Virus record (IMG/VR): IMGVR_UViG_3300036833_000266 | Span: 1-37,292 of that record | Length of the DNA: 37,292 bases | Reading direction: 5' to 3' (one strand) | From: a virus | Lineage: Duplodnaviria > Caudoviricetes | Shown here: positions 8,968 to 32,735 of the stretch, piece after piece | Layout of the letters: each line of letters opens with the position of its first letter | Position numbering within the stretch: position 1 is the stretch's first letter | Position numbers and translations under genes: made by a program | The notes under the pieces: model-generated | Databases searched by the model: none | What the model was told of the DNA's origin: nothing | Seen by the model: the letters and a program-made list of their open reading frames with translations, nothing else

Positions 8968-8980
8968 GCTAACCGTTAGC
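8968..8980. promoter_or_regulatory. Operator O1a (GCTAACCGTTAGC)
   Basis: Perfect 6-1-6 palindrome, 85 bp upstream of O1b. Confidence 0.75.
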
Positions 8981-9043: not shown

Positions 9044-9071
9044 TTGACTGTAGCTAACGGATAGATAAGCT
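9044..9071 (+). promoter_or_regulatory. Early promoter P1 with operator O1b in the spacer
   Basis: TTGACT-16 bp-TAAGCT, AT-rich tract upstream, GCTAACGGATAGA at 9053-9065, ATG 8 nt after the -10. Confidence 0.75.
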
Positions 9072-9079
9072 TGTAACAT

Positions 9080-9247
9080 ATGAATAATACGTTAGATACA
9101 ACTAAACAAACTATTAAATACGACTATGAGCATCAAGCTTGGGTCGTAAACGGCAAATATGCGTCTTGTGCGCATCCGGAGCAAATGCATTGCAAATGCT
9201 ACGGCAAACTGCACGAAGGCGAGATTTGCATAACGGAGGTCCACTAA
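9080..9247 (+). CDS. Small Cys/His protein (55 aa, leaderless; not in ORF track)
   Basis: MNNTLDTTKQTIKYDYEHQAWVVNGKYASCAHPEQMHCKCYGKLHEGEICITEVH; stop 1 nt before next gene. Confidence 0.75.
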   Translation: MNNTLDTTKQTIKYDYEHQAWVVNGKYASCAHPEQMHCKCYGKLHEGEICITEVH

Positions 9248-9248
9248 A

Positions 9249-9593
9249 ATGCCGTACATAGCTACAGACAAAGTAAAATTAATGCGCTCAAATATCCGGA
9301 AAGCTTTACCGGGATACGTTGTGAGCGTCACAAAACATCACCATTCGACGGTAGACGTTCGTTTAATGTCGGGGCCGATTCCGCCGGTAGACGTAAACGT
9401 TTACTGGTACAGAGAGCACCTACAGAATAATCCCGACGCACTAGCGTTGGTTGAAACAATCATGTCGGAGATTGACAAGGTGCAGACATCTCGCGAGCTC
9501 GTAAATGATGGCGATTATGGAAGCGTCCCAACGTTTTATATTAACGTCTCGTTTGGCAAATGGGACAAACCCTATGTGCAGGAGGTCAAATAA
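9249..9593 (+). CDS. Conserved phage early protein (possibly LPD29-like)
   Basis: 'IRKALPGY..SV...H.S.V.V..MSGP...N.Y...FYI....GKWDKPY'; tightly coupled to neighbours. Confidence 0.6.
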   Translation: MPYIATDKVKLMRSNIRKALPGYVVSVTKHHHSTVDVRLMSGPIPPVDVNVYWYREHLQNNPDALALVETIMSEIDKVQTSRELVNDGDYGSVPTFYINVSFGKWDKPYVQEVK

Positions 9594-10444
9594 TGACGCT
9601 TTTATCGATTGGCAACGATAGCAAAACGGTCAAAGGCGAAAAATTCGGTTTTGTGACCGGGATTCAATATTTTGCGCCGGCGCATTTAGCAGGCAACGGG
9701 ATTAATGTTTGCAAATTCGCGACAGTGCATTGCAAAGCGGCTTGCCTATATTCGGCCGGCCGCGGGATCATGAGTAACGTGCAAAAAGCGCGGATTGCCA
9801 GAACGCAATTCTGGTACGCGAATCCGACGCGTTTTCTTGCGCAATTGGAAAGCGAAATTTCGGCCTTAGTTAAAAAGGCGGAAAAAGCCGGAATGCGTCC
9901 AGCTATTCGTTTGAATGGGACCAGTGACATTTTGTGGGAAAAGACTGGAATTCTTGAGAGATTTCCTCATGTCCAGTTTTATGACTTCACGAAATATCCG
10001 GCCGGCCTTCGCCAGAATTTGCCTGGCAATTACCATTTGACCTATTCATTTACCGGCCTGGCAATATCGGCCGAATTTTCGGATGCATGGGCAAAACGCG
10101 GAATTAATACGGCTGTCGTTTTCAAGGTTAAAAAAGGCGAACCCTTACCGGCCGAATTTTTTGGCCGGCCGGTCATCGACGGAGATTTGTCGGATTTGCG
10201 TTTTGCGGATCCGGCCGGGTGCATTGTCGGCCTTCGTGCGAAGGGGAAAGCTCGCGTTGGGATCTCGCCTTTTGTCGTTGAAGTGAAAGAAGGCCTGGCA
10301 ATCTGGCCGGCCGCGGATCCGGCCGCGGAAAAGGAAGTTGAGCGAATCATGGCCGCGGCCGCGAATCTCGGAAAAGTAACACTAAAGCCGATGTCAATTC
10401 CAGTCGGTACGGATCCGCTCGAGATCAAAGCTTGGACAGCCTAG
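9593..10444 (+). CDS. Gene product 88 (GP88)-family protein
   Basis: 'N.KT.K...APA...NVC......C...CL..AGRG...ARI.RT...RLNGTSDI.WE...FYD.TK...NYHLT.S...DGD..DLRF.DP...VGL.AKG'; SD GGAGG, TAATG overlap. Confidence 0.85.
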   Translation: MTLLSIGNDSKTVKGEKFGFVTGIQYFAPAHLAGNGINVCKFATVHCKAACLYSAGRGIMSNVQKARIARTQFWYANPTRFLAQLESEISALVKKAEKAGMRPAIRLNGTSDILWEKTGILERFPHVQFYDFTKYPAGLRQNLPGNYHLTYSFTGLAISAEFSDAWAKRGINTAVVFKVKKGEPLPAEFFGRPVIDGDLSDLRFADPAGCIVGLRAKGKARVGISPFVVEVKEGLAIWPAADPAAEKEVERIMAAAANLGKVTLKPMSIPVGTDPLEIKAWTA

Positions 10445-10531
10445 CGATTGCCTACAATAGCGGCCGGCCTGGAGAGATCCGCGGCCGGCCGTTATAAGGT
10501 CATCACAAACAACCAAAGGAGAAAATTCAAA

Positions 10532-10801
10532 ATGTATATGCGAGACTATTTCGGCCATGATGAAGAGATCCCGGCCGGATTTCAAGATGCCGACATCGAA
10601 ACGCGCGAGCTCGAGGCCGCGGCCGCTGAAACGCGCAATTTGCCGGCATTTCGTGTCATCTACACGGACGGAACAAGCTACGTTACGTCGATGTCCAAAA
10701 GCACAACCTTAGAAAATGCGCGAGCTTATTTTGTCGACGCGTCTATTGAACAAATGGACGGAACATGCAAACGCGTTTCAGATGTGCAGGAGATCAAATA
10801 A
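10532..10801 (+). CDS. Hypothetical early protein
   Basis: SD AAGGAG upstream of ATG 10532. Confidence 0.65.
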   Translation: MYMRDYFGHDEEIPAGFQDADIETRELEAAAAETRNLPAFRVIYTDGTSYVTSMSKSTTLENARAYFVDASIEQMDGTCKRVSDVQEIK

Positions 10802-10802
10802 C

Positions 10803-11096
10803 GTGAAAGCAATTCACTGGTATACAGACAAGAACGCGTTTCGCGGATTTAGGCCGGGGCAAATGATAACGTTTCGCGTCCCAAACGGCTTGAGCTTTAC
10901 AGGCAAGCAAGAATACAAGGTCAAACGAGGCAAAATTATAATGTGCTTCGAGAATCATGTTGTGGCTAATCATGGAAGCTTTGGGCAAGTTGTAAACGAT
11001 CAGAACTGCGTAACAAAGCCGAAACGAATTCCTAAAGGTGCAGTGATTCAACCTGGCACTGGCGGCCTGTTAGTGAAACGCGGGAGGGTCTTGTGA
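10803..11096 (+). CDS. Hypothetical early protein
   Basis: GTG 1 nt after previous stop; GTGA overlap with next gene. Confidence 0.6.
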   Translation: MKAIHWYTDKNAFRGFRPGQMITFRVPNGLSFTGKQEYKVKRGKIIMCFENHVVANHGSFGQVVNDQNCVTKPKRIPKGAVIQPGTGGLLVKRGRVL

Positions 11097-11275
11097 TAAC
11101 ACGCGACCAAATTTTGGAGGCTGTCGAGCGTGACGATTGCACGGGAATTTGCCTAGCTTGTAGAAACGAGCAAGGCAATTGCGAACCCGACGCGCGTAAA
11201 TACGAATGCGAAGCTTGTGGCGAGCTCAAGGTATATGGCGCAGAGGAATTGCTTTTCAAAATAGGAATGGACTAG
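11093..11275 (+). CDS. Zinc-ribbon phage protein
   Basis: 'GICLAC...CEPDARKYECEACG...VYG.EELL', two CxxC; SD GGGAGG. Confidence 0.8.
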   Translation: MITRDQILEAVERDDCTGICLACRNEQGNCEPDARKYECEACGELKVYGAEELLFKIGMD

Positions 11276-11289
11276 CGAATGAAACGAAC

Positions 11290-11328
11290 AAAGGCCGGCC
11301 GGGATTTGATCCGCGGCCGGCCTTTTTA
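11290..11328 (+). terminator. Rho-independent terminator of early operon 1
   Basis: AAGGCCGGCCG-GGAT / ATCC-GCGGCCGGCCTT stem followed by a T run. Confidence 0.8.
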
Positions 11329-11526
11329 CTGTACAGAATCAAGGACCAATGAAGACACGAATTCAGCCGGCCTGTCGGCCGCGGGATCCCGGCCGCGGCC
11401 GTTTATTGGTCATCTTGCCAGGCCGGCCGCGGGATCCGGATCCGGCCGGGATCCCGGCCGGCCAGACATGTTCTGCAGTGCATGTGCAATCGAACATGTT
11501 CGCTCGAGCACACGCGTGTGGCCGGT

Positions 11527-11655
11527 ACTTTGGATGGTCGACTTTGGATGGTCGACTCTGGATGGTCCGATGGTCGGCCGGCCAATGGCGAGCTCGTACT
11601 TTGGATGGTCAACTTTACAGCCGGCGAATCGCGCGATCGGCACTTTGGATGGTCG
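11527..11655 (+). repeat. Cluster of 14-bp direct repeats ACTTTGGATGGTCG
   Basis: Copies at 11527, 11541, 11555 (variant), 11598, 11642; partial at 11569; a distant copy at 12644. Confidence 0.95.
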
Positions 11656-11659
11656 ATCA

Positions 11660-11672
11660 GCAAACGGTTAGC
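11660..11672. promoter_or_regulatory. Operator O2a (GCAAACGGTTAGC)
   Basis: One mismatch from the palindrome; 84 bp upstream of O2b. Confidence 0.7.
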
Positions 11673-11734: not shown

Positions 11735-11762
11735 TTGACAATAGCCAACGGATAGCTAGAAT
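11735..11762 (+). promoter_or_regulatory. Early promoter P2 with operator O2b in the spacer
   Basis: TTGACA-16 bp-TAGAAT, GCCAACGGATAGC at 11744-11756, ATG 8 nt after the -10. Confidence 0.85.
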
Positions 11763-13330: not shown

Positions 13331-14026
13331 TTATAACGGCAATCCGTATTTGTGGATCTTGTCGTCATCTTTGAATTTGCGTTCAAAGAGTGGTTTATCG
13401 GACCGGTTAAGCCAGTTGATAAATCGGCGGCGTGTAGGCTGAACTTTGTGTTCCTTGCTCCAGCGAACGCATTTGGCGTGTTCGCGTTCAACGTCGATCC
13501 CTTTGTAAGCCGGATCGGTTTTTAGTTCTTCAATCCATTTGGAGGACGAATTTTCTTTTTCTTGTACAACTTCTTTTTCTTTTGCTTCTGCATCTGCTTC
13601 TGAGTGTGTTACATTTGTTACAGTAACATCTGTAACATTCCATAACGCTTCATCTGTTACATTCTTATTCTTGGTCCTGTGTTGCGCGACTCTGAGCCTG
13701 GTTCGTTCCCTCTGGATTTCCCTGCTCAACATGGTTCGGTAATATGGGGCTTTGAGAACCATCCAGCCGTTTGGGACTCTCTCGATTCGGCGACCGTCAA
13801 ATTCATCATTTGGACTTCGTTGGTCGGGTGATTCAAGGACCTTTAACGCGTGGACGAGTTTTTCAGTTGGGACATTGGCCCGACGCGCCAGGTTTTCATC
13901 GCAAGAGAAAGGACAGAACCCATCCTCATCCATTGCCGCCAGCATTGTGATCCAGACGATCCTGGTTACGTCTTCTTCCAGCCAGATGGATGAATCGAGA
14001 ATCTTCGTAAAAAGCCGATTATACAT
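13331..14026 (-). CDS. Phage replication initiator (replisome-organiser type)
   Basis: 'MYNRLFTKILDSSIW...LARRANV...ESPD...DGRRIERV..GW...R.RV..HR', then a VT-rich linker encoded by iteron-like repeats and a C-terminal 'FINWL.R' domain. Confidence 0.75.
   Translation of the reverse strand: MYNRLFTKILDSSIWLEEDVTRIVWITMLAAMDEDGFCPFSCDENLARRANVPTEKLVHALKVLESPDQRSPNDEFDGRRIERVPNGWMVLKAPYYRTMLSREIQRERTRLRVAQHRTKNKNVTDEALWNVTDVTVTNVTHSEADAEAKEKEVVQEKENSSSKWIEELKTDPAYKGIDVEREHAKCVRWSKEHKVQPTRRRFINWLNRSDKPLFERKFKDDDKIHKYGLPL
13607..13661. repeat. Iteron-like TGTTACA/TGTAACA cluster (putative replication origin)
   Basis: TGTTACA at 13607, 13616, 13655; GTAACA 13623; TGTAACA 13631; next to a T-rich tract 13550-13585. 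Confidence 0.65.
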
Positions 14027-14093
14027 GATGAACCCATGTGAATGGACAGATCCGGTTGGATCTGCCCATTTAGGTGGTTTCACCTGGAACTCC

Positions 14094-18180: not shown

Positions 18181-18434
18181 TCGCTGTAGTTCCTTCCTAC
18201 CTCTTCCGAGAGGCTCATGGTGTTATCGTCATTAGTTGTGGGGCTTTCCCCGAGAGGCAGTTCCGCTTGCTTATGTTTTGACTCCCGCCGGCGCGGGAGC
18301 AGTGCTGCCTCGGTCAGGATGTACTCAAGTTCAATGAATGCCTTTGTTGCTGGGCTAGGGATCATCATTCCTTGGGCAATGATGTTCCAGCGTTGTGCGA
18401 TCTTGCGCTTGAGCGCGTTGTTACCAGTGCTCAC
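18177..18434 (-). CDS. Hypothetical protein
   Basis: Coupled by 4-nt overlaps on both sides. Confidence 0.6.
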   Translation of the reverse strand: MSTGNNALKRKIAQRWNIIAQGMMIPSPATKAFIELEYILTEAALLPRRRESKHKQAELPLGESPTTNDDNTMSLSEEVGRNYSE

Positions 18435-18685
18435 TTGAGCGTCCTTCCGTTTAGTTTTGGCTGAAGCGTTCGCCGCGACTGATATGCTTCGATGTCAGCG
18501 AGGCGAACGTGATGGCTATGTTTGCCGTGAATGATTACGGGCAAATTCGCGCGAACCCAGAGCGGCGTTTTTTTAAGTAGCTGCGCAGCACCAGGAACAG
18601 TCACTTCTTCTACCGCAGCTTCACGGCGAATACGTTCCTTCAACCGATCGATCTCGCGCTCCAATTGCCTCAGTGCAGTTGTCAT
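18431..18685 (-). CDS. Excisionase-like HTH protein, copy A
   Basis: 'VTVPGAAQLLKKTPLWVR...VRLADIEAY'; SD AAAGG; paralog of 20712-21032. Confidence 0.7.
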   Translation of the reverse strand: MTTALRQLEREIDRLKERIRREAAVEEVTVPGAAQLLKKTPLWVRANLPVIIHGKHSHHVRLADIEAYQSRRTLQPKLNGRTLK

Positions 18686-18912
18686 CTGAGGAGTGCCTTT
18701 TTGAGTCGTCGGCGTTTTACTGTGATGCGGCGGCGAGGGTCACCATCGTCCACAGCCGATATCATCCCCTCAAAGAGCCGACCAATTGAGATGTGTCGCT
18801 CCCAGGCGAGCTTGGAGGCTCGCGCTTTGGCAACGGGATCCACCAATAAGTTGAGCTTTTCACCTGTGATTTGCCTTCGCGGCCGACCTCTTTTTTTCGC
18901 TCTTGTCTGCAT
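18682..18912 (-). CDS. Ribbon-helix-helix regulator 1 with AT-hook-like KRGRPR (Cro-like position)
   Basis: 'KLNLLVDP..KARA.KLA.ER..SIGRLFE..I'; first gene of leftward operon. Confidence 0.75.
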   Translation of the reverse strand: MQTRAKKRGRPRRQITGEKLNLLVDPVAKARASKLAWERHISIGRLFEGMISAVDDGDPRRRITVKRRRLKKALLR

Positions 18913-19083
18913 CGCAGTGAGGGTTTTTCCCACCAAAATTTCCGGTGCATTTTATATGCGTAATGCGCAGACAATTGACAAGAAAAAACTTGCACTTACT
19001 ATTTTATGGCGTATAAAAATCGAAACTTGCCCATGTGAATCCCGTATTAATTCTTGCCGGGACTTTTCTTCAACCTGCTCCTT
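18913..19083. promoter_or_regulatory. Divergent control (immunity) region
   Basis: AT-rich; TTGACA-16-TACTAT (18975-19002), TTGCAC-16-TATAAA (18990-19017); near-palindrome TTTTAT-GGCGT-ATAAAA (19002-19018) and related ATTTTATATGCGTAATG (18949). Confidence 0.65.
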
Positions 19084-19329
19084 ATGCCTCAAAAACAACA
19101 ACCGAAACGTGTGTTTGTAGCCCATTCCAAACGTGATAAGCGTTTGGTGAAACAGTTGAAACAGAAGTTGAGCCTGACGGTAACGCCGGCGAGTCGAGCT
19201 AAAGCAGAACGGGTCGCCGCAAGAGAACACCGCAGTGTGTCCTCACTATTCGAGCATTTGATCGATTTGGAATTTCGAAAGATTGCCGGGACTAGGAGCA
19301 AACGGCGAAGCAATCCTGCTTTCGCTTAA
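19084..19329 (+). CDS. Ribbon-helix-helix regulator 2 (repressor-like position)
   Basis: 'KQKLSLTVTP..RAKAE.VA..E.RSVSSLFE.LI'. Confidence 0.75.
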   Translation: MPQKQQPKRVFVAHSKRDKRLVKQLKQKLSLTVTPASRAKAERVAAREHRSVSSLFEHLIDLEFRKIAGTRSKRRSNPAFA

Positions 19330-19511
19330 GAGATGAAGATCAAAAGTTCGTCTGCGTCTTCGATCAGTCGCTCGAATAGTTGCGCCACCGTGATCCCGTA
19401 CATGGCCGCTAGCAGCAGTGCCTTCTTGTTCGAGTCATCCGATATTCGCAAATCCAAACGTTCACGCGATGGCTCTTGCAAGCCGACAAATCGTCGCGGT
19501 CGTTCAGGCAT
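19326..19511 (-). CDS. Ribbon-helix-helix regulator 3
   Basis: 'RLDLRISD....KA..LA...GITVAQLFERLI'; divergent from integrase. Confidence 0.7.
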   Translation of the reverse strand: MPERPRRFVGLQEPSRERLDLRISDDSNKKALLLAAMYGITVAQLFERLIEDADELLIFIS

Positions 19512-19584
19512 TGGGGATAAAGAGTGTGTGGGACGGAACCTTATCACTAGCCGGTTCGCTTCTGGTTAACAAGGCATTTTTAAA

Positions 19585-20715
19585 ATGAAAATTGGTCACA
19601 TAAAAATTATCGTTCGCCAGTACGCCGATGGACGCTGGGGGTTTGATGATTATTCACAGGGCGAGCGGCGAATGGTACGGTTCGGGAGCAAAGAGAAAGC
19701 CGAGGCGCGAGCCACTGATATTGCTGTTCTTCTGGCAAACGGTCGCAACGATCTGCTCGACATCGATCTCGCGGAACTGGCAGAATTTAGGGCATGGAAA
19801 GTCGAGCGTAGTCGCAGCCGGCCATTCGGGGAACTGTGCAATGAATTTCTGCAGGTTAAATCCACGACGAGCAGTCGTCACTTTCGATCGCTTACAAACG
19901 ACATCAGACTGTTTGAGCAATTCATTGGATCTACACGACCGATAGCAACGATCTTGGCACCAGAGATCCAACGTTTCCTTGATTCACGCAGTGCCGGGAT
20001 GCGTCGGAAAGCAAATCTGCGAGCAGCAGTCGTCAACCTGTTCTCCTGGGCGAGACGAATGTCCTATCTGGATCGGGATCGCACAACTGAAGCAGAGAAA
20101 GTCGACCGCATTAAAATCGCGCCAGGCGAAGCAAATATTATCACGGCAGATCAAATGCGAACGCTGATCGGAAACGTTCAACAGCATTTTATGCCGTGGC
20201 TTTTGATCGGCGCATTCGCCGGCATTCGCTCGGAGGAAATCGCGCCTGATCCAGATTCGAAAAAGTCGCCACTGATGTGGGAAGATTTTGATTGGAAACA
20301 CAATATTATTATCGTTCGGGCGGCGACAGCCAAAACGCGTCAGGAACGCGAGGTGCCGATTCTACCCAATCTGGCTCAGTGGCTGGCGCAGTATCGTTCG
20401 GCAAATGGTCCAGTCCTTGGCGATGCCGAACAACCCAGCAAACGAGAAGCCACGCGCATCGGGGAATTCATCGGCGGCTGGAAACACAATTGTCTGCGAG
20501 ACTCATTCTGTTCGTATCGGACGCGAATGACGCAGAACGTTCCGCAGGTTTCCTACGAGATGGGCAACTCAATCCCGATGGTCAAACGTTCTTATCATCG
20601 TCGCCAGCCAGTCCAGGCCGCTCGCGAATGGTTCAATATTCGACCGGCGAAAAGGTCTTCTAATCTGGTACTTTTTGATACTTCAAAAGCTCAGAGGACG
20701 AAAAACGTCCATTGA
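19585..20715 (+). CDS. int: Tyrosine recombinase / phage integrase
   Basis: AGIRSEE (R), AKT (K), HNCLRDSF.SY, MGNS, RSY (Y); attP-like site downstream. Confidence 0.93.
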   Translation: MKIGHIKIIVRQYADGRWGFDDYSQGERRMVRFGSKEKAEARATDIAVLLANGRNDLLDIDLAELAEFRAWKVERSRSRPFGELCNEFLQVKSTTSSRHFRSLTNDIRLFEQFIGSTRPIATILAPEIQRFLDSRSAGMRRKANLRAAVVNLFSWARRMSYLDRDRTTEAEKVDRIKIAPGEANIITADQMRTLIGNVQQHFMPWLLIGAFAGIRSEEIAPDPDSKKSPLMWEDFDWKHNIIIVRAATAKTRQEREVPILPNLAQWLAQYRSANGPVLGDAEQPSKREATRIGEFIGGWKHNCLRDSFCSYRTRMTQNVPQVSYEMGNSIPMVKRSYHRRQPVQAAREWFNIRPAKRSSNLVLFDTSKAQRTKNVH

Positions 20716-21032
20716 TTACGACTGCATTGAGGCAACTAGAGCGCGAGATCGACCGGCTCAAGAAACGTATTGGGCGTGAGGCTGACAGATTTGCTGGCAT
20801 ACAAGAACTGACTGTTCCTGATGCAGCAAGATTACTTAAAAAAACTCCGCGATGGGTTCGTGCAAATTTACCCGTAGTCGTTTACAGCAAACGCAGTCAT
20901 CATGTACGCCTTGCTGACATTGAAACGTTCCAGGCACGGCGCATTCTCGAGCCATCGCGCGATCGCCAGTGCAAACAGCAAAGTTTGGTACTAAAGTACC
21001 AACCGAAAAAAAGTACCAAAAAGTACCAATAA
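20712..21032 (+). CDS. Excisionase-like HTH protein, copy B
   Basis: Clear paralog of 18431-18685; TTGA overlap with int stop; 3' end runs into att arm repeats. Confidence 0.65.
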   Translation: MITTALRQLEREIDRLKKRIGREADRFAGIQELTVPDAARLLKKTPRWVRANLPVVVYSKRSHHVRLADIETFQARRILEPSRDRQCKQQSLVLKYQPKKSTKKYQ

Positions 21033-21241: not shown

Positions 21242-21469
21242 GTGACTGAGCACCATCTGCCAGCCGGCGAATCTTTTCCCGTCTGGCAACTCGCTCAATT
21301 GTTTCATGTCTCGGATCAGCACCTGGTCAACTTAATCGAGGAAGGCGAGCTCTACGCGTTTGATTTGCGCGGGAAATCCTCGAGTCGTTCGTGTGTCCGA
21401 ATTCCTCGCAACGCACTGATCGAATTCCTCCAAAGACGCCAACTCAAGGATGGCAAAATCATAGTTTGA
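21242..21469 (+). CDS. Excisionase-family (HTH_17-like) protein
   Basis: 'V.QLAQLFHVS.QHL.NLIEEGEL.A....RIPR.AL.EFL.RR'; next to attP. Confidence 0.8.
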   Translation: MTEHHLPAGESFPVWQLAQLFHVSDQHLVNLIEEGELYAFDLRGKSSSRSCVRIPRNALIEFLQRRQLKDGKIIV

Positions 21470-21499
21470 CTTCCATGCTGGCCGCTGCTAACGGTTAGC
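21466..21499 (+). promoter_or_regulatory. Promoter P3 overlapped by perfect operator O3a (GCTAACGGTTAGC, 21487-21499)
   Basis: TTGACT-17-TAACGG with TG extension (imperfect -10); palindrome ends 2 nt before ATG 21502. Confidence 0.65.
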
Positions 21500-21501
21500 T
21501 C

Positions 21502-21663
21502 ATGGATGAAAAAGAGTTGATCAGACAAGCCATGTCTGTGCTCGGCAGCCGAACGAGCGAACGCAAGAAAGCCAGTTCTCGAGCGAACGCGAAGCTGCCG
21601 CGGAAGCGCGGGAAGAAAAAAAGGGTTGCGACTAGCAAACTGATGGCTAATGTGGCGGCCTAA
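21502..21663 (+). CDS. 53-aa basic protein, candidate repressor (not in ORF track)
   Basis: MDEKELIRQAMSVLGSRTSERKKASSRANAKLPRKRGKKKRVATSKLMANVAA; TAATG overlap with next gene. Confidence 0.7.
   Translation: MDEKELIRQAMSVLGSRTSERKKASSRANAKLPRKRGKKKRVATSKLMANVAA
21626..21653 (+). promoter_or_regulatory. Promoter P4 with degenerate operator O3b in the spacer
   Basis: TTGCGA-16 bp-TAATGT; GCAAACTGATGGC at 21635-21647, same register as P1 and P2; ATG 9 nt after the -10. Confidence 0.55.
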
Positions 21664-23224: not shown

Positions 23225-23285
23225 TTGTCTAATCATCTATTCAGGCGCATAAAAGGTGCGTAAATATGAAAACACCAGCATCCAT

Positions 23286-24032
23286 ATGAACGAACAAGAA
23301 GCAACTAATGACGGGACGAGTGCAACGCCGGTGGCAACGGCAGCACCCGTCGAAACCTCCTTTAAATGTCCAACGTGCAGCAGAGAGTTTGCCAGTGAAC
23401 GTGCGTTGCAAACGCATCAGATCCGATCGCACAAACAATTCTGGAGCACGAACAAGGGGCAGCGGCGAAGTAGCCCACGCGCGAAGATGGGTCGACCACC
23501 GAAAAATAAGGCAGCAGTCTTAGCCAAGCACAAAGAATACTACAAGCGATACGCTGCAAAACTCAAAGCGCAGGGACTCACTACGCACGGCAATGTGCCG
23601 GTGGGGCGAGGATCGGGGCGCAAAAAGAATCCGCATCTAGGCAAGACTTGCCCGGTGTGTTCGCGCAGTTTCGCAACACGCGCGATTATGGGACATCATT
23701 TGCGAGCAATTCACGGCAAATCGTTGACTCAATTTAACAATGGCCCGGAACCTAGGTCGCTTGTGGTACAAAATCTCAGCTGCCCAGTGTGCAGTAAGAC
23801 GTATGGTCGCCGCGCTTACCTGGCGATCCACACGCGCAAGGTTCACGGGAAAAGCATCGCTGTGCTTGAGAAAGGCAGCACCTCGGAGCCTACGCCCGAG
23901 GCAGTGCCGGCAGCATCGGCGCGAAAGCTGACTCAGCAGCAGACGGCTAGTCGTCCAGTAATCTATTGTCCTGTCTGCGGAACAAATATCCACAATGTCC
24001 AAACGGCTGTGAATTTCGGAGAAATACAATGA
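23286..24032 (+). CDS. Protein with three classical C2H2 zinc fingers, AT-hook-like motif and C-terminal CxxC
   Basis: Three C-X2-C-X12-H-X4-H units; GRPPK; terminal YCPVCG. Start could also be GTG 23256. Confidence 0.85.
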   Translation: MNEQEATNDGTSATPVATAAPVETSFKCPTCSREFASERALQTHQIRSHKQFWSTNKGQRRSSPRAKMGRPPKNKAAVLAKHKEYYKRYAAKLKAQGLTTHGNVPVGRGSGRKKNPHLGKTCPVCSRSFATRAIMGHHLRAIHGKSLTQFNNGPEPRSLVVQNLSCPVCSKTYGRRAYLAIHTRKVHGKSIAVLEKGSTSEPTPEAVPAASARKLTQQQTASRPVIYCPVCGTNIHNVQTAVNFGEIQ

Positions 24033-30973: not shown

Positions 30974-31789
30974 ATGAAGATCGACACTATTAATGGCTGG
31001 TTTCGCGGACTGGGCGACATTGTGTGTTATGCGTGGCTAGGCGAAGGTTTACTGGCCGCCGGGGAACCAGTTGAATTCTTCGCCACCGACTGGCGAGCAG
31101 AGGTCTTGCGCATGTTCCAGATGCCCGTGGGCGCGGACAGGGACGGCGCAGTCCTAACATGGGAAGGCTATGAAAAAGCCGTTAGCACTCACTCGCCACT
31201 CAATTACCTGGACTGGATCGCGCACCGCCTCGGAGTCAAAGCGCAACCGAAACGGCCGCGCCTGGACCTGACACCAATGGACAGGGAGATGGGACGCCGC
31301 GATAGCGCGGACGTCCTGATTTTCCCGTTCAGTTACTCACCGGTCCGTAGCTGGCCGAAAGCCTATTTCATTGAACTTGGTCTGTTACTTAAGGCCGCAG
31401 GCTTCAGCGTAAAAGTGGTGACTGAACAACGGGACTACGGTTTCTTCATGCCGTTCCATTGCATCGTTGGGCAAAGCTGGAACTACATCGCCGCGGCGAT
31501 CCAAAGCGCAAAGCTTGTCATCGGGAACGACAGTGGCCCCGCGCACCTTGCCGGGACGATCGGCACAAGGACGATCGCGATCCAAGGCGCAACCACTGAA
31601 AGGATATACGTCCATATCCCAGAAGTGATTTCGTATCGCAAGAAAGCATTGTCTTGCGCTGGGTGCCACTGTCTGCCGCCAGATTTTCGCGCGACATGCG
31701 ATACCGGTTGCCTCGAGCTCTATCGGACGTTGCCGGAAGAAGTGGTCGAGTTCGCAATTCGAACCCTCAGTATGGAGAAAGCAGCATGA
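30974..31789 (+). CDS. Glycosyltransferase family 9 (heptosyltransferase-like)
   Basis: 'GLGDIV', 'RSWP...F.EL', 'AAIQSAKLVIGNDSGPAHLA', C-terminal 'CAGCH...C...CL...L.PEEV'. Confidence 0.9.
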   Translation: MKIDTINGWFRGLGDIVCYAWLGEGLLAAGEPVEFFATDWRAEVLRMFQMPVGADRDGAVLTWEGYEKAVSTHSPLNYLDWIAHRLGVKAQPKRPRLDLTPMDREMGRRDSADVLIFPFSYSPVRSWPKAYFIELGLLLKAAGFSVKVVTEQRDYGFFMPFHCIVGQSWNYIAAAIQSAKLVIGNDSGPAHLAGTIGTRTIAIQGATTERIYVHIPEVISYRKKALSCAGCHCLPPDFRATCDTGCLELYRTLPEEVVEFAIRTLSMEKAA

Positions 31790-32079
31790 AAATAATTATG
31801 CCAGGACACAAATACGAGCTCGCGAGCTTTGAAGGATCGGATCCGCAAGTGGTTCAATTTATCGAAAAGGAACATCCTTCGATGAAGACCATCAATGATG
31901 GCACCACGAATGAAGAGGTGCTCGCCATGCTCATCGATCGCTTGCGCTCGCTCGGTGAAACAGTTCCGTGTCGAGAGAATTCAATCGCCATTACGAGATG
32001 CGAGGAAGCTCTCATGTGGCTAAACAAACGTACCGCCGACCGAAAAGCGCGAGGCGTTGAAGGAACTTCAGCAGCATGA
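31786..32079 (+). CDS. Tad1/Acb2-family nucleotide-signal sponge (anti-defence)
   Basis: 'H.Y...G...EEVL..LIDRL...PCRENSIAIT..EEALMWL.KRT.DR..RGVEGT' matches the Tad1 C-terminal helical hairpin; ATGA overlaps on both sides. Confidence 0.75.
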   Translation: MKIIMPGHKYELASFEGSDPQVVQFIEKEHPSMKTINDGTTNEEVLAMLIDRLRSLGETVPCRENSIAITRCEEALMWLNKRTADRKARGVEGTSAA

Positions 32080-32735
32080 CCGCACTGGGCTTTGGCATGA
32101 CCGGAATGGAAGAACGGATTTGCCAGGTCGTCCGAGATCTCGCCGGTCGGTTTGATGAGATCACTTACATGGAAATCGGTGTAGGCGAAGGCACGACACT
32201 CACTGGCATTGCTCGGGAACTGAGAATGACCAAAAAGAAGTGGCGAGCAATCGGCCTGGAATTGCCAAACGGTTACTCGTTCGATCGTTTGCGGACGATG
32301 GAGATTGCAGCGAGAAGATCTCTTCCACTCACCTTCGTTCACCCTGAAACGATCGTGTATCCAGCCTGGGAACGAGTCATAGTCTATTTCAAGGATAGCC
32401 AAAGTTTTTTGACCGAGCATTGGAACGCTCCCATCCACCTGGCGCTGATTGACGGTTGCCATGGTAAACCGTGCGTCACCGCGGACTTTATCGCACTGGA
32501 AGCATTCATGGCAGATCAAGGCATCGTCATGTTCCACGATTTCAGCGAAGACCAATCCGGACATCCACAGCCGCATTGTGCCGGCGGCTGCGACGTTCGC
32601 GGTGCCTGTCGCGATCTTGGGTTATTAAGCGATCGCCGGGCCGGCTGGAGATTCACCGAGGCAATACCTGCGGACCGAACCAATGGCGGCTGGGACATGG
32701 GCGTTTTTACCAAACAACCACTTAAAAATGGCTAA
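32076..32735 (+). CDS. Class I SAM-dependent methyltransferase (Methyltransf_24-like)
   Basis: 'YMEIGVGEG.T', 'IHLALIDGCH', 'G.VMFHD'. Confidence 0.85.
   Translation: MTALGFGMTGMEERICQVVRDLAGRFDEITYMEIGVGEGTTLTGIARELRMTKKKWRAIGLELPNGYSFDRLRTMEIAARRSLPLTFVHPETIVYPAWERVIVYFKDSQSFLTEHWNAPIHLALIDGCHGKPCVTADFIALEAFMADQGIVMFHDFSEDQSGHPQPHCAGGCDVRGACRDLGLLSDRRAGWRFTEAIPADRTNGGWDMGVFTKQPLKNG

Follow-up and report, generated by a model that had tools for sequence, protein, structure and literature searches.

A 53-residue phage protein paired with a promoter palindrome: a probable new family of minimal autoregulatory repressors

Introduction

To our knowledge, nearly all bacterial and phage repressors are HTH or RHH proteins. 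RHH proteins bind short palindromes at promoters, and the RHH repressors Arc and Mnt of phage P22 and CopG are autoregulators of about 50 residues whose operators overlap promoters. Aca proteins have served as a guilt-by-association handle for anti-defence genes. According to the accessible part of one account, Aca1–Aca14 are small phage regulators that bind the promoter of their own operon and repress neighbouring early operons of putative anti-defence genes; they are usually HTH proteins, with Aca14 an RHH protein (PMC13551039). SMV2 gp37 is described, in the available portion of its report, as a small non-HTH protein, predicted to form a leucine zipper and to regulate the early genes of archaeal viruses (PMC11065993), and the C-terminal part of resolvase helix E is described, in the part of that study open to us, as docking in the minor groove with sequence preference (10.1101/2021.12.07.471667). 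For phage T5, on which we draw on the accessible parts of two sources (10.1101/866236, PMC10644984), shut-off of the pre-early genes is ascribed to A1 by a mechanism given as not established (PMC10644984).

Here we analyse a virus record over its full length of 37,292 nt, which has an assigned completeness of 100% and is hereafter called the window. A sequence-only reading of this DNA had singled out a 53-aa basic protein bracketed by two operators as a candidate minimal repressor. We find that the operator system is real and that the small protein probably represents a new family of minimal repressors. At roughly 80%, we favour a reading, built from sequence comparison, in which it is an autoregulatory repressor of early promoters that would bind GCTAACNGTTAGC by means of a new minimal DNA-binding module. 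The literature within our reach, outside which most subscription papers fall, yielded no description of either the family or the operator.

Results

A small basic protein of a large, unnamed family

Pfam and PHROG scans identify Mu-like portal and protease genes, a terminase, tail genes and a tyrosine-integrase-like gene in the window; the terminase is ~35% identical to its nearest cultured counterparts, too distant to point to a host. The window also encodes a 258-aa protein with three C2H2 zinc fingers (23256–24032; Pfam E 7e-11), and its head genes are separated from its neck genes by ORFs for a family 9 glycosyltransferase and a methyltransferase (30974–32735).

The ORF for the candidate repressor occupies 21502–21663 on the plus strand. 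The sequence-only reading had called its product unannotated and free of any HTH or RHH pattern, and both descriptions hold: there is no match in Pfam, PHROG, NCBIfam or PDB sequences, no HTH profile match or three-helix fold, no RHH match and no predicted N-terminal strand. The same RHH scans do match another window ORF (19054–19329) and a gene of a close relative considered below. An IMG label of ‘Arc/MetJ-type’ on two homologues is unsupported by any of our profile scans. With regard to other basic DNA-binding motifs, the window protein lacks the GRP of an AT-hook, and broad-family members that end in GGRP have no Pfam AT_hook match at E values up to 1; neither the window protein nor the scanned family members match KGG (PF10685, the stress-peptide repeat).

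An AlphaFold2 model of modest quality (mean pLDDT 77, pTM 0.36) predicts helices at residues 3–15 and 20–31, parted by G15–S19, followed by a basic tail modelled with low confidence. Residues 1–15 carry a net charge of −1 and residues 16–42 one of +12. Structural comparisons with this model were uninformative (no Foldseek match; best VIA-align Z 2.9), the ESM Atlas gave only unnamed clusters at 0.90–0.92 and no usable named match, and a homodimer prediction score of 0.03 was counted neither way.

A word search with the single sequence recovered only the small protein itself, and tblastn against cultured phages gave nothing useful. A full HMMER pass returned 36 matches, 35 of them real homologues; the remaining one, P0004, was dropped as a repeat-protein artefact. 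A further profile search gave 138 matches, 120 of them listed, which puts the family at 138 proteins or more, and a scan of genome contigs confirmed three relatives. Across 36 aligned sequences, M11, G15, R17, S19 and K22 are invariant, and I7, A10, L14, N29 and R34 are nearly so. In two homologue pairs, synonymous changes outnumber non-synonymous ones (10 to 2 and 14 to 7); between the window and its close relative G006 the counts are 4 synonymous to 9 non-synonymous.

By these profiles the small protein is one branch of a large family rather than an orphan. At its margins the family merges with common phage peptides that terminate in NGKxGGRP, where the window subfamily has NAKxPRK instead. 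The module is also found fused to a Sigma70_r4 HTH (P0014, P0042, P0090 and P0107) and to HNH-like domains (P0015, P0052 and P0084, the last two assigned by eye). At L001:8773–10286, a 1.5-kb interval beside a promoter with an even-spaced palindrome holds three small basic ORFs that are paralogous to one another.

Operators occupy one register in predicted promoters

Operator O1 (21487–21499), the perfect palindrome GCTAACGGTTAGC, ends 2 nt before the ATG at 21502, just as the sequence-only reading had placed it. That reading also had O1 cover the −10 box and transcription start of a promoter for the gene. A predicted promoter, P1, is indeed present on the plus strand at 21466–21494 (TTGACT at 21466–21471, a 17-nt spacer and an extended −10, TG-C-TAACGG, at 21489–21494), but it is weaker than had been implied, since its −10 (TAACGG) lacks the final T; O1 covers this −10 but ends ~2 nt short of the predicted start at ~21501. 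Because that start falls about at the ATG, the P1 mRNA would be leaderless, which the lack of an evident ribosome-binding site ahead of the ORF fits. The P1 layout, a TTG.. hexamer followed by 15 nt and the operator, is repeated in L055, L060 and G006.

The second operator and promoter that had been proposed within the last codons of the ORF are there as well. Operator O2 (21635–21647, three mismatches) sits in the spacer of predicted promoter P2 (21626–21653, plus strand; TTGCGA, 16 nt, TAATGT), which faces downstream small genes and has counterparts in G006, L044 and L055. The first putative targets of P2 (21663–22493, plus strand) have no family matches, and the first ATG among them overlaps the stop codon of the small ORF.

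Four further sites went unmentioned in the sequence-only reading. One lies at 9053–9065 in the spacer of predicted promoter Pa (9044–9071, plus strand), which heads a run of small genes, and another at 11744–11756 in the spacer of Pb (11735–11762, plus strand), which heads small unannotated genes. The other two are auxiliary operators, one perfect (8968–8980) and 85 nt upstream of the Pa site, the other with one mismatch (11660–11672) and 84 nt upstream of the Pb site. Three of the six sites in the window therefore lie in 16-nt promoter spacers (promoters 9044, 11735 and 21626) at a single register; each of these promoters also has one site further upstream, at distances of 85, 84 and 148 nt, respectively, from its spacer site. 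Taken alone, O2 with its three mismatches is unremarkable; its register in the P2 spacer matches that in the promoters at 9044 and 11735. The window holds five matches to the palindrome at up to two mismatches versus 0.83 expected, a number reached in none of 100 shuffles. In a pattern scan, the operator register is common to three of the eight promoter-like elements in the window. A pattern derived from the three operator promoters finds three matches in the window and none in 100 shuffles, a circular count that is descriptive only. The auxiliary and spacer operators of the two pairs (8968/9053 and 11660/11744) are 85 and 84 nt apart, or about eight helical turns, a distance that could allow looping.

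The putative Pa target operon (9080–11275, plus strand) includes an LPD29-like ORF (9249–9593; Pfam E 1e-4, below the cut-off) and a GP88 ORF (9560–10444; E 2e-41). Most putative target ORFs have no family match in Pfam or PHROG, and such runs of small genes, mostly without families, would be typical of early host-takeover regions. Immediately upstream of the auxiliary operator at 11660 is a repeat-rich stretch (11279–11660) with many GGCCGG/GGATCC palindromes and several ACTTTGGATGGTC repeats, possibly an origin or packaging region.

Operators accompany homologous genes

We collected 26 loci with homologues of the small gene (7 viral, 18 metagenomic and L001) and searched 22 of them with a 17-bp matrix trained only on the six window sites, at a threshold of at least 10 bits; copies (L051, L052 and L062) and L063, in which the gene is cut by the contig end, were left out. 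Shuffled sequence would give a site upstream of the gene in 0.09 loci and one at its end in 0.15; the counts observed are 11 of 22 and 9 of 21, respectively. In a set of 19 loci, from which near-copies and two members with a different N-terminus were removed and to which G006 was added, an operator lies beside the gene in 12; the background rate, taken from windows in other parts of these loci, is 9 of 260. The expectation that homologues would carry the palindrome at the start or end of the gene is thus largely borne out, and, as had been anticipated, other promoters of these phages also hold the palindrome in their spacers. G006, L044, L046, L049, L053, L055 and L058 have operators both before the ATG and at the gene end. 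No site of the window matrix is present in 7 of the 19 subfamily loci (L043, L045, L047, L048, L056, L061 and L064); by eye, L045 and L047 have variant palindromes, and the L048 record has two strong sites ~2.4 kb upstream. In L044, L046 and L057, the downstream operator itself encodes the last codons and the stop, so that ANG or SNG forms the C-terminus of several homologues. Beyond the small gene, the homologous loci have no window gene in common; the next most widely shared is HTH_17 (5 of 26).

The arrangement of sites and the settings of the gene bear on a reading in which the protein does bind but mainly activates, bends or loops DNA, or in which the palindromes are recombination or cassette-exchange points. 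MerR-type activators bind inside the spacer of promoters whose spacers are long and suboptimal. Binding inside a short spacer recalls these activators, auxiliary sites 84 and 85 nt (~8 turns) upstream of Pb and Pa would suit an architectural role, and recombination could be read from the very different neighbourhoods of the gene and from the likeness of the operator word to joined integron core sites. Unlike MerR targets, however, the operator promoters are near consensus with 16–17-nt spacers; moreover, O1 covers a −10 box, and recombination needs no fixed register to −35 and −10 boxes. We regard this as the most improbable of the alternatives weighed here.

Close relatives separate the candidate binders

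The window encodes other proteins that might bind the palindrome, which would make the small gene a regulated passenger. Three RHH-like ORFs (18682–18936, minus; 19054–19329, plus; 19326–19547, minus; the first and third assigned by eye only) and an HTH_17/excisionase-like ORF directly upstream of the small ORF (21242–21469, plus) were not mentioned in the sequence-only reading; a fifth candidate is a 250-aa ORF (13331–14083). That RHH proteins bind short promoter palindromes lends this alternative some plausibility. Still, the RHH-like ORFs surround a promoter of their own at 18975, and there is no operator of the GCTAACNGTTAGC kind there. A separate palindrome (19002–19018) lies in their divergent control region, upstream of the integrase-like gene, and the RHH-like block (18682–19547) with this region is a possible lysogeny switch. 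Paralogous ORFs with near-identical N-termini (MTTALRQLERE...) flank the RHH–integrase block at 18431–18685 (minus) and 20712–21032 (plus).

Relatives of the phage help to distinguish these candidates. In G006, whose terminase is 95% identical to that of the window, the small gene is bracketed by both operators, but G006 does not discriminate between binders because all three RHH-like genes are present too, which is compatible with an RHH binder. The complete genome G008 (terminase 76% identical) is more telling, as it keeps HTH_17 (79% identical) and an RHH2-like ORF (50% over 32 aa) yet has no family gene and no site above 12.3 bits, versus 19.5–24.9 bits for the window's own sites. In G006 the small gene is followed by a zinc-ribbon gene; in G008 the slot ahead of that zinc-ribbon gene is taken by an RHH_1 gene (Pfam E 6e-6) under a different promoter, so that a regulator of known type occupies the small protein's place. 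Conversely, in the complete genome G005 operators accompany the small gene although nothing there matches RHH1–3 or HTH_17. The window ORFs common to G006, G005 and G001/L052 are the small ORF and a 58-codon alternative frame at the start of the head-protease gene, leaving the small ORF as the only real window gene shared by the three operator-bearing relatives tested. The 250-aa ORF is a residual rival: G006, G005 and G003 share it and the search of G008 did not turn it up, but neither was it found in G001/L052, incomplete records with five strong sites. We consider it quite unlikely that another phage protein is the binder.

Related peptides pair with related palindromes

A scan for GGRP-type peptides matched 603 stretches in 13 of the 64 parts of the collection, of which 154 were confirmed, some of them replication proteins, and 78 loci were returned; we estimate that ~3,200 stored viral stretches match the family's peptide patterns. 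In many of these loci, a promoter spacer is itself a related palindrome with the same half-sites, either abutting (even spacing) or one base apart (odd spacing). In keeping with the suggested covariation of palindrome and protein, more distant members have related palindromes of different spacing. Counted with one hand-made half-site model and with protein classes defined after seeing the data, the window-like class has odd sites in 11 loci, even in 1 and none in 10, and the LGS[IM][TK]S class has even sites in 7, both in 1 and none in 10. Under this model, no site was found for 25 of 29 GG-linker members or for 17 rows that lack the S..K anchor and include long replication-type proteins. A third, 14-bp operator class suggested by eye for GG-linker members was not supported by the model, which gave such a site at threshold in only 3 of 99 scored loci.

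Long replication-type proteins of thirteen loci (L102, L103, L105, L127, L133, L135, L139, L147, L148, L151, L159, L161 and L169; L102 with a weak DUF1376 match) carry R.NGKKGGRP internally. They have nothing but the NGKKGGRP word in common with the family, and no promoter palindrome was found with them. The NGKKGGRP arm may be a reused DNA-binding module.

A search from the DNA side returns the gene

We also ran the comparison in the opposite direction, having written down the expectation before the scan. A pattern of −35 box plus palindrome returned 121 viral loci, 120 of which were analysed (40 being short, ~1 kb or less). The family gene is present in 46 of the 120, and in 38 of the 80 long loci, versus 0 of 44 background loci (299 kb). 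After removal of five long loci seen before and merging of near-copies, it is present in 28 of 53 clusters, made up of 25 of the 36 even clusters and 3 of the 17 odd ones. In 27 of these 28 the gene and the promoter share a strand, and in 25 the gene lies downstream. The forecast that a DNA-only search would return the family gene was thus correct. The forecast of spacing class was half right: 24 of 25 even-spaced sites accompany the expected protein class, but all three odd clusters have the same class. A rule fixed beforehand, that Arg or Lys at position 17 specifies odd spacing, failed on these held-out data (0 of 3 odd clusters) and was rejected. Considered post hoc, the residue at the M11 position fits better, with Ala accompanying even spacing in 29 of 30 cases, non-Ala accompanying odd in 11 of 16 and Met accompanying odd in 7 of 7; spacing labels change 6 times on a 30-column tree, also post hoc, versus 10.8 times when shuffled. 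We offer this Ala/Met rule as a hypothesis, as it was chosen after both data sets and kin share labels.

The pairing is incomplete. No family gene lies within the locus in 25 of the 53 held-out clusters, including 14 of 17 that are odd-spaced, and a search of 14 whole records with the promoter alone found the gene in only 1 (1 of 4 that are near-complete); in G017, a separate search found it. In such promoter-only records the palindrome may serve another binder or a divergent family member, or the spacer may resemble it by chance. A scan of viral contigs with the bare palindrome gave 37 loci, none with a family gene, and a stricter promoter-plus-operator pattern gave no matches. At L012:2717–2760, tandem, iteron-like 11-nt repeats contain the palindrome without a family gene.

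Thirteen of the long loci form a single cluster of T5-length phages, and the one checked is T5 itself (L246/L293, NC_005859.1). The spacer of its P-D/E20 promoter holds an odd-spaced palindrome of the broad family, and the pre-early region has five degenerate copies of CCTAGC-N-GMTAGG, including that of P-D/E20 (NC_005859.1: 1681, 4699, 5157, 6393 and 8049), which may act as an operator when the pre-early genes are shut off. T5 has no detectable family gene, and a search of the pre-early region for a divergent member reached at best 2.3 bits. The presence of the word without the family speaks for a different phage protein as binder, as does a weak D5-like regulator match of T5 A2 (E 0.013).

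The same observation, that promoters carry the word in records with no detectable family gene, including that of the E. coli phage T5, could instead mean that a host factor binds the palindrome or that the palindrome is an element of promoter strength, the small gene then encoding some early effector, for example an anti-defence protein that binds DNA. This too we judge very unlikely. Operators are found in phages from 35% to 70% GC, which suggests many hosts, and their spacing follows the protein lineage; a mere target gene would need no site at both ends, and the close relative G008 loses the sites together with the gene. The claim that the small protein is the likely binder is thus supported by its pairing with the palindrome across phages and tempered by phages that have the word and no detected family gene.

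Discussion

We propose that the small protein is a negative-feedback timer for early genes. Host sigma70-type polymerase would at first act at Pa, Pb and P2 to express the small early genes, and at P1, which is weak and would give a leaderless mRNA, to express the repressor. With accumulation of the protein, a dimer bound between the −35 and −10 boxes would shut Pa, Pb and P2. When a protein is bound between these boxes of a near-consensus promoter, blocking RNA polymerase is the simplest effect. The protein would also shut its own promoter, in an Aca-like manner; negative feedback on P1 is proposed because O1 sits over the gene's own −10.

How so small a protein might read the palindrome is much less certain than the pairing of protein and site, and the fold-level steps that we suggest are tentative. 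From conservation and the AlphaFold model, the near-neutral helix 1 (I7, A10, M11 and L14) may provide the dimer contact, and helix 2 with the basic tail (S19, K22 and N29) may read each half-site, possibly via the minor groove in the way of the helix E and GGRP arm of serine recombinases. This assignment of roles draws on the DNA-invertase likeness of the broad profile and on the docking of resolvase helix E. The only PDB matches of the broad-family profile are to DNA-invertase residues 128–147 at non-significant E values (0.17–0.22), the match to PHROG 125 (E 0.055) is likewise not significant, and the subfamily profile has no PDB match to serine recombinases.

More broadly, the balance tips slightly toward the idea that the small protein exemplifies a widespread superfamily of repressors of 40–60 aa, in which a new module (short dimer helix, SxxKxxxxxxN helix and basic arm) plugs the spacers of sigma70 early promoters and Ala or Met at the point where helix 1 crosses its partner sets the half-site spacing. 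Such proteins would form a third structural class of Aca-like regulators beside HTH and RHH and would mark early anti-defence operons in many phages. If the proposal is right, a conserved core of ~35 residues with neither the HTH nor the RHH fold would place the small protein among the smallest sequence-specific DNA binders known, and it could be used as a compact orthogonal repressor. Promoters filled by the operator would mark runs of small unannotated early genes, offering a guilt-by-association handle for anti-defence genes.

Compared with described systems, the locus combines familiar and unfamiliar features. As in T5, where a palindrome of the broad family with odd spacing occupies the P-D/E20 spacer, operators fill promoter spacers, but T5 differs from the small-gene phages in having no detectable family gene. 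The proposed repression of early genes through an inverted repeat in the core promoter, inferred from co-occurrence, resembles what the accessible portion of the SMV2 gp37 report describes, and the likeness is one of description only; by contrast, the promoters of SMV2 gp37 are archaeal TATA/BRE promoters and its coiled coil has spaced leucines (PMC11065993). The broad family's basic, Gly-rich word is like helix E and the AT-hook-like GGRP arm of Gin and Tn3/γδ resolvases, but the small protein has no catalytic or HTH domain, and in its subfamily NAKxPRK replaces NGKxGGRP. As with Arc, Mnt and CopG, a protein of about 50 residues is putatively autoregulatory through an operator that overlaps a promoter, and an RHH_1 gene takes its slot in G008; unlike them, it has no predicted N-terminal β-strand and no RHH profile match.

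A close parallel in logic is with the Aca proteins: an inverted repeat is likewise present in the small gene's own predicted promoter and in neighbouring promoters that are predicted to be early. In contrast to Aca proteins as described there, the small protein is neither HTH nor RHH, and no acr gene was recognised among its putative targets, most of which have no family match in Pfam or PHROG. The regulatory logic is thus the known one of an Aca- or Arc-type autoregulator, whereas the DNA-binding module is apparently new.
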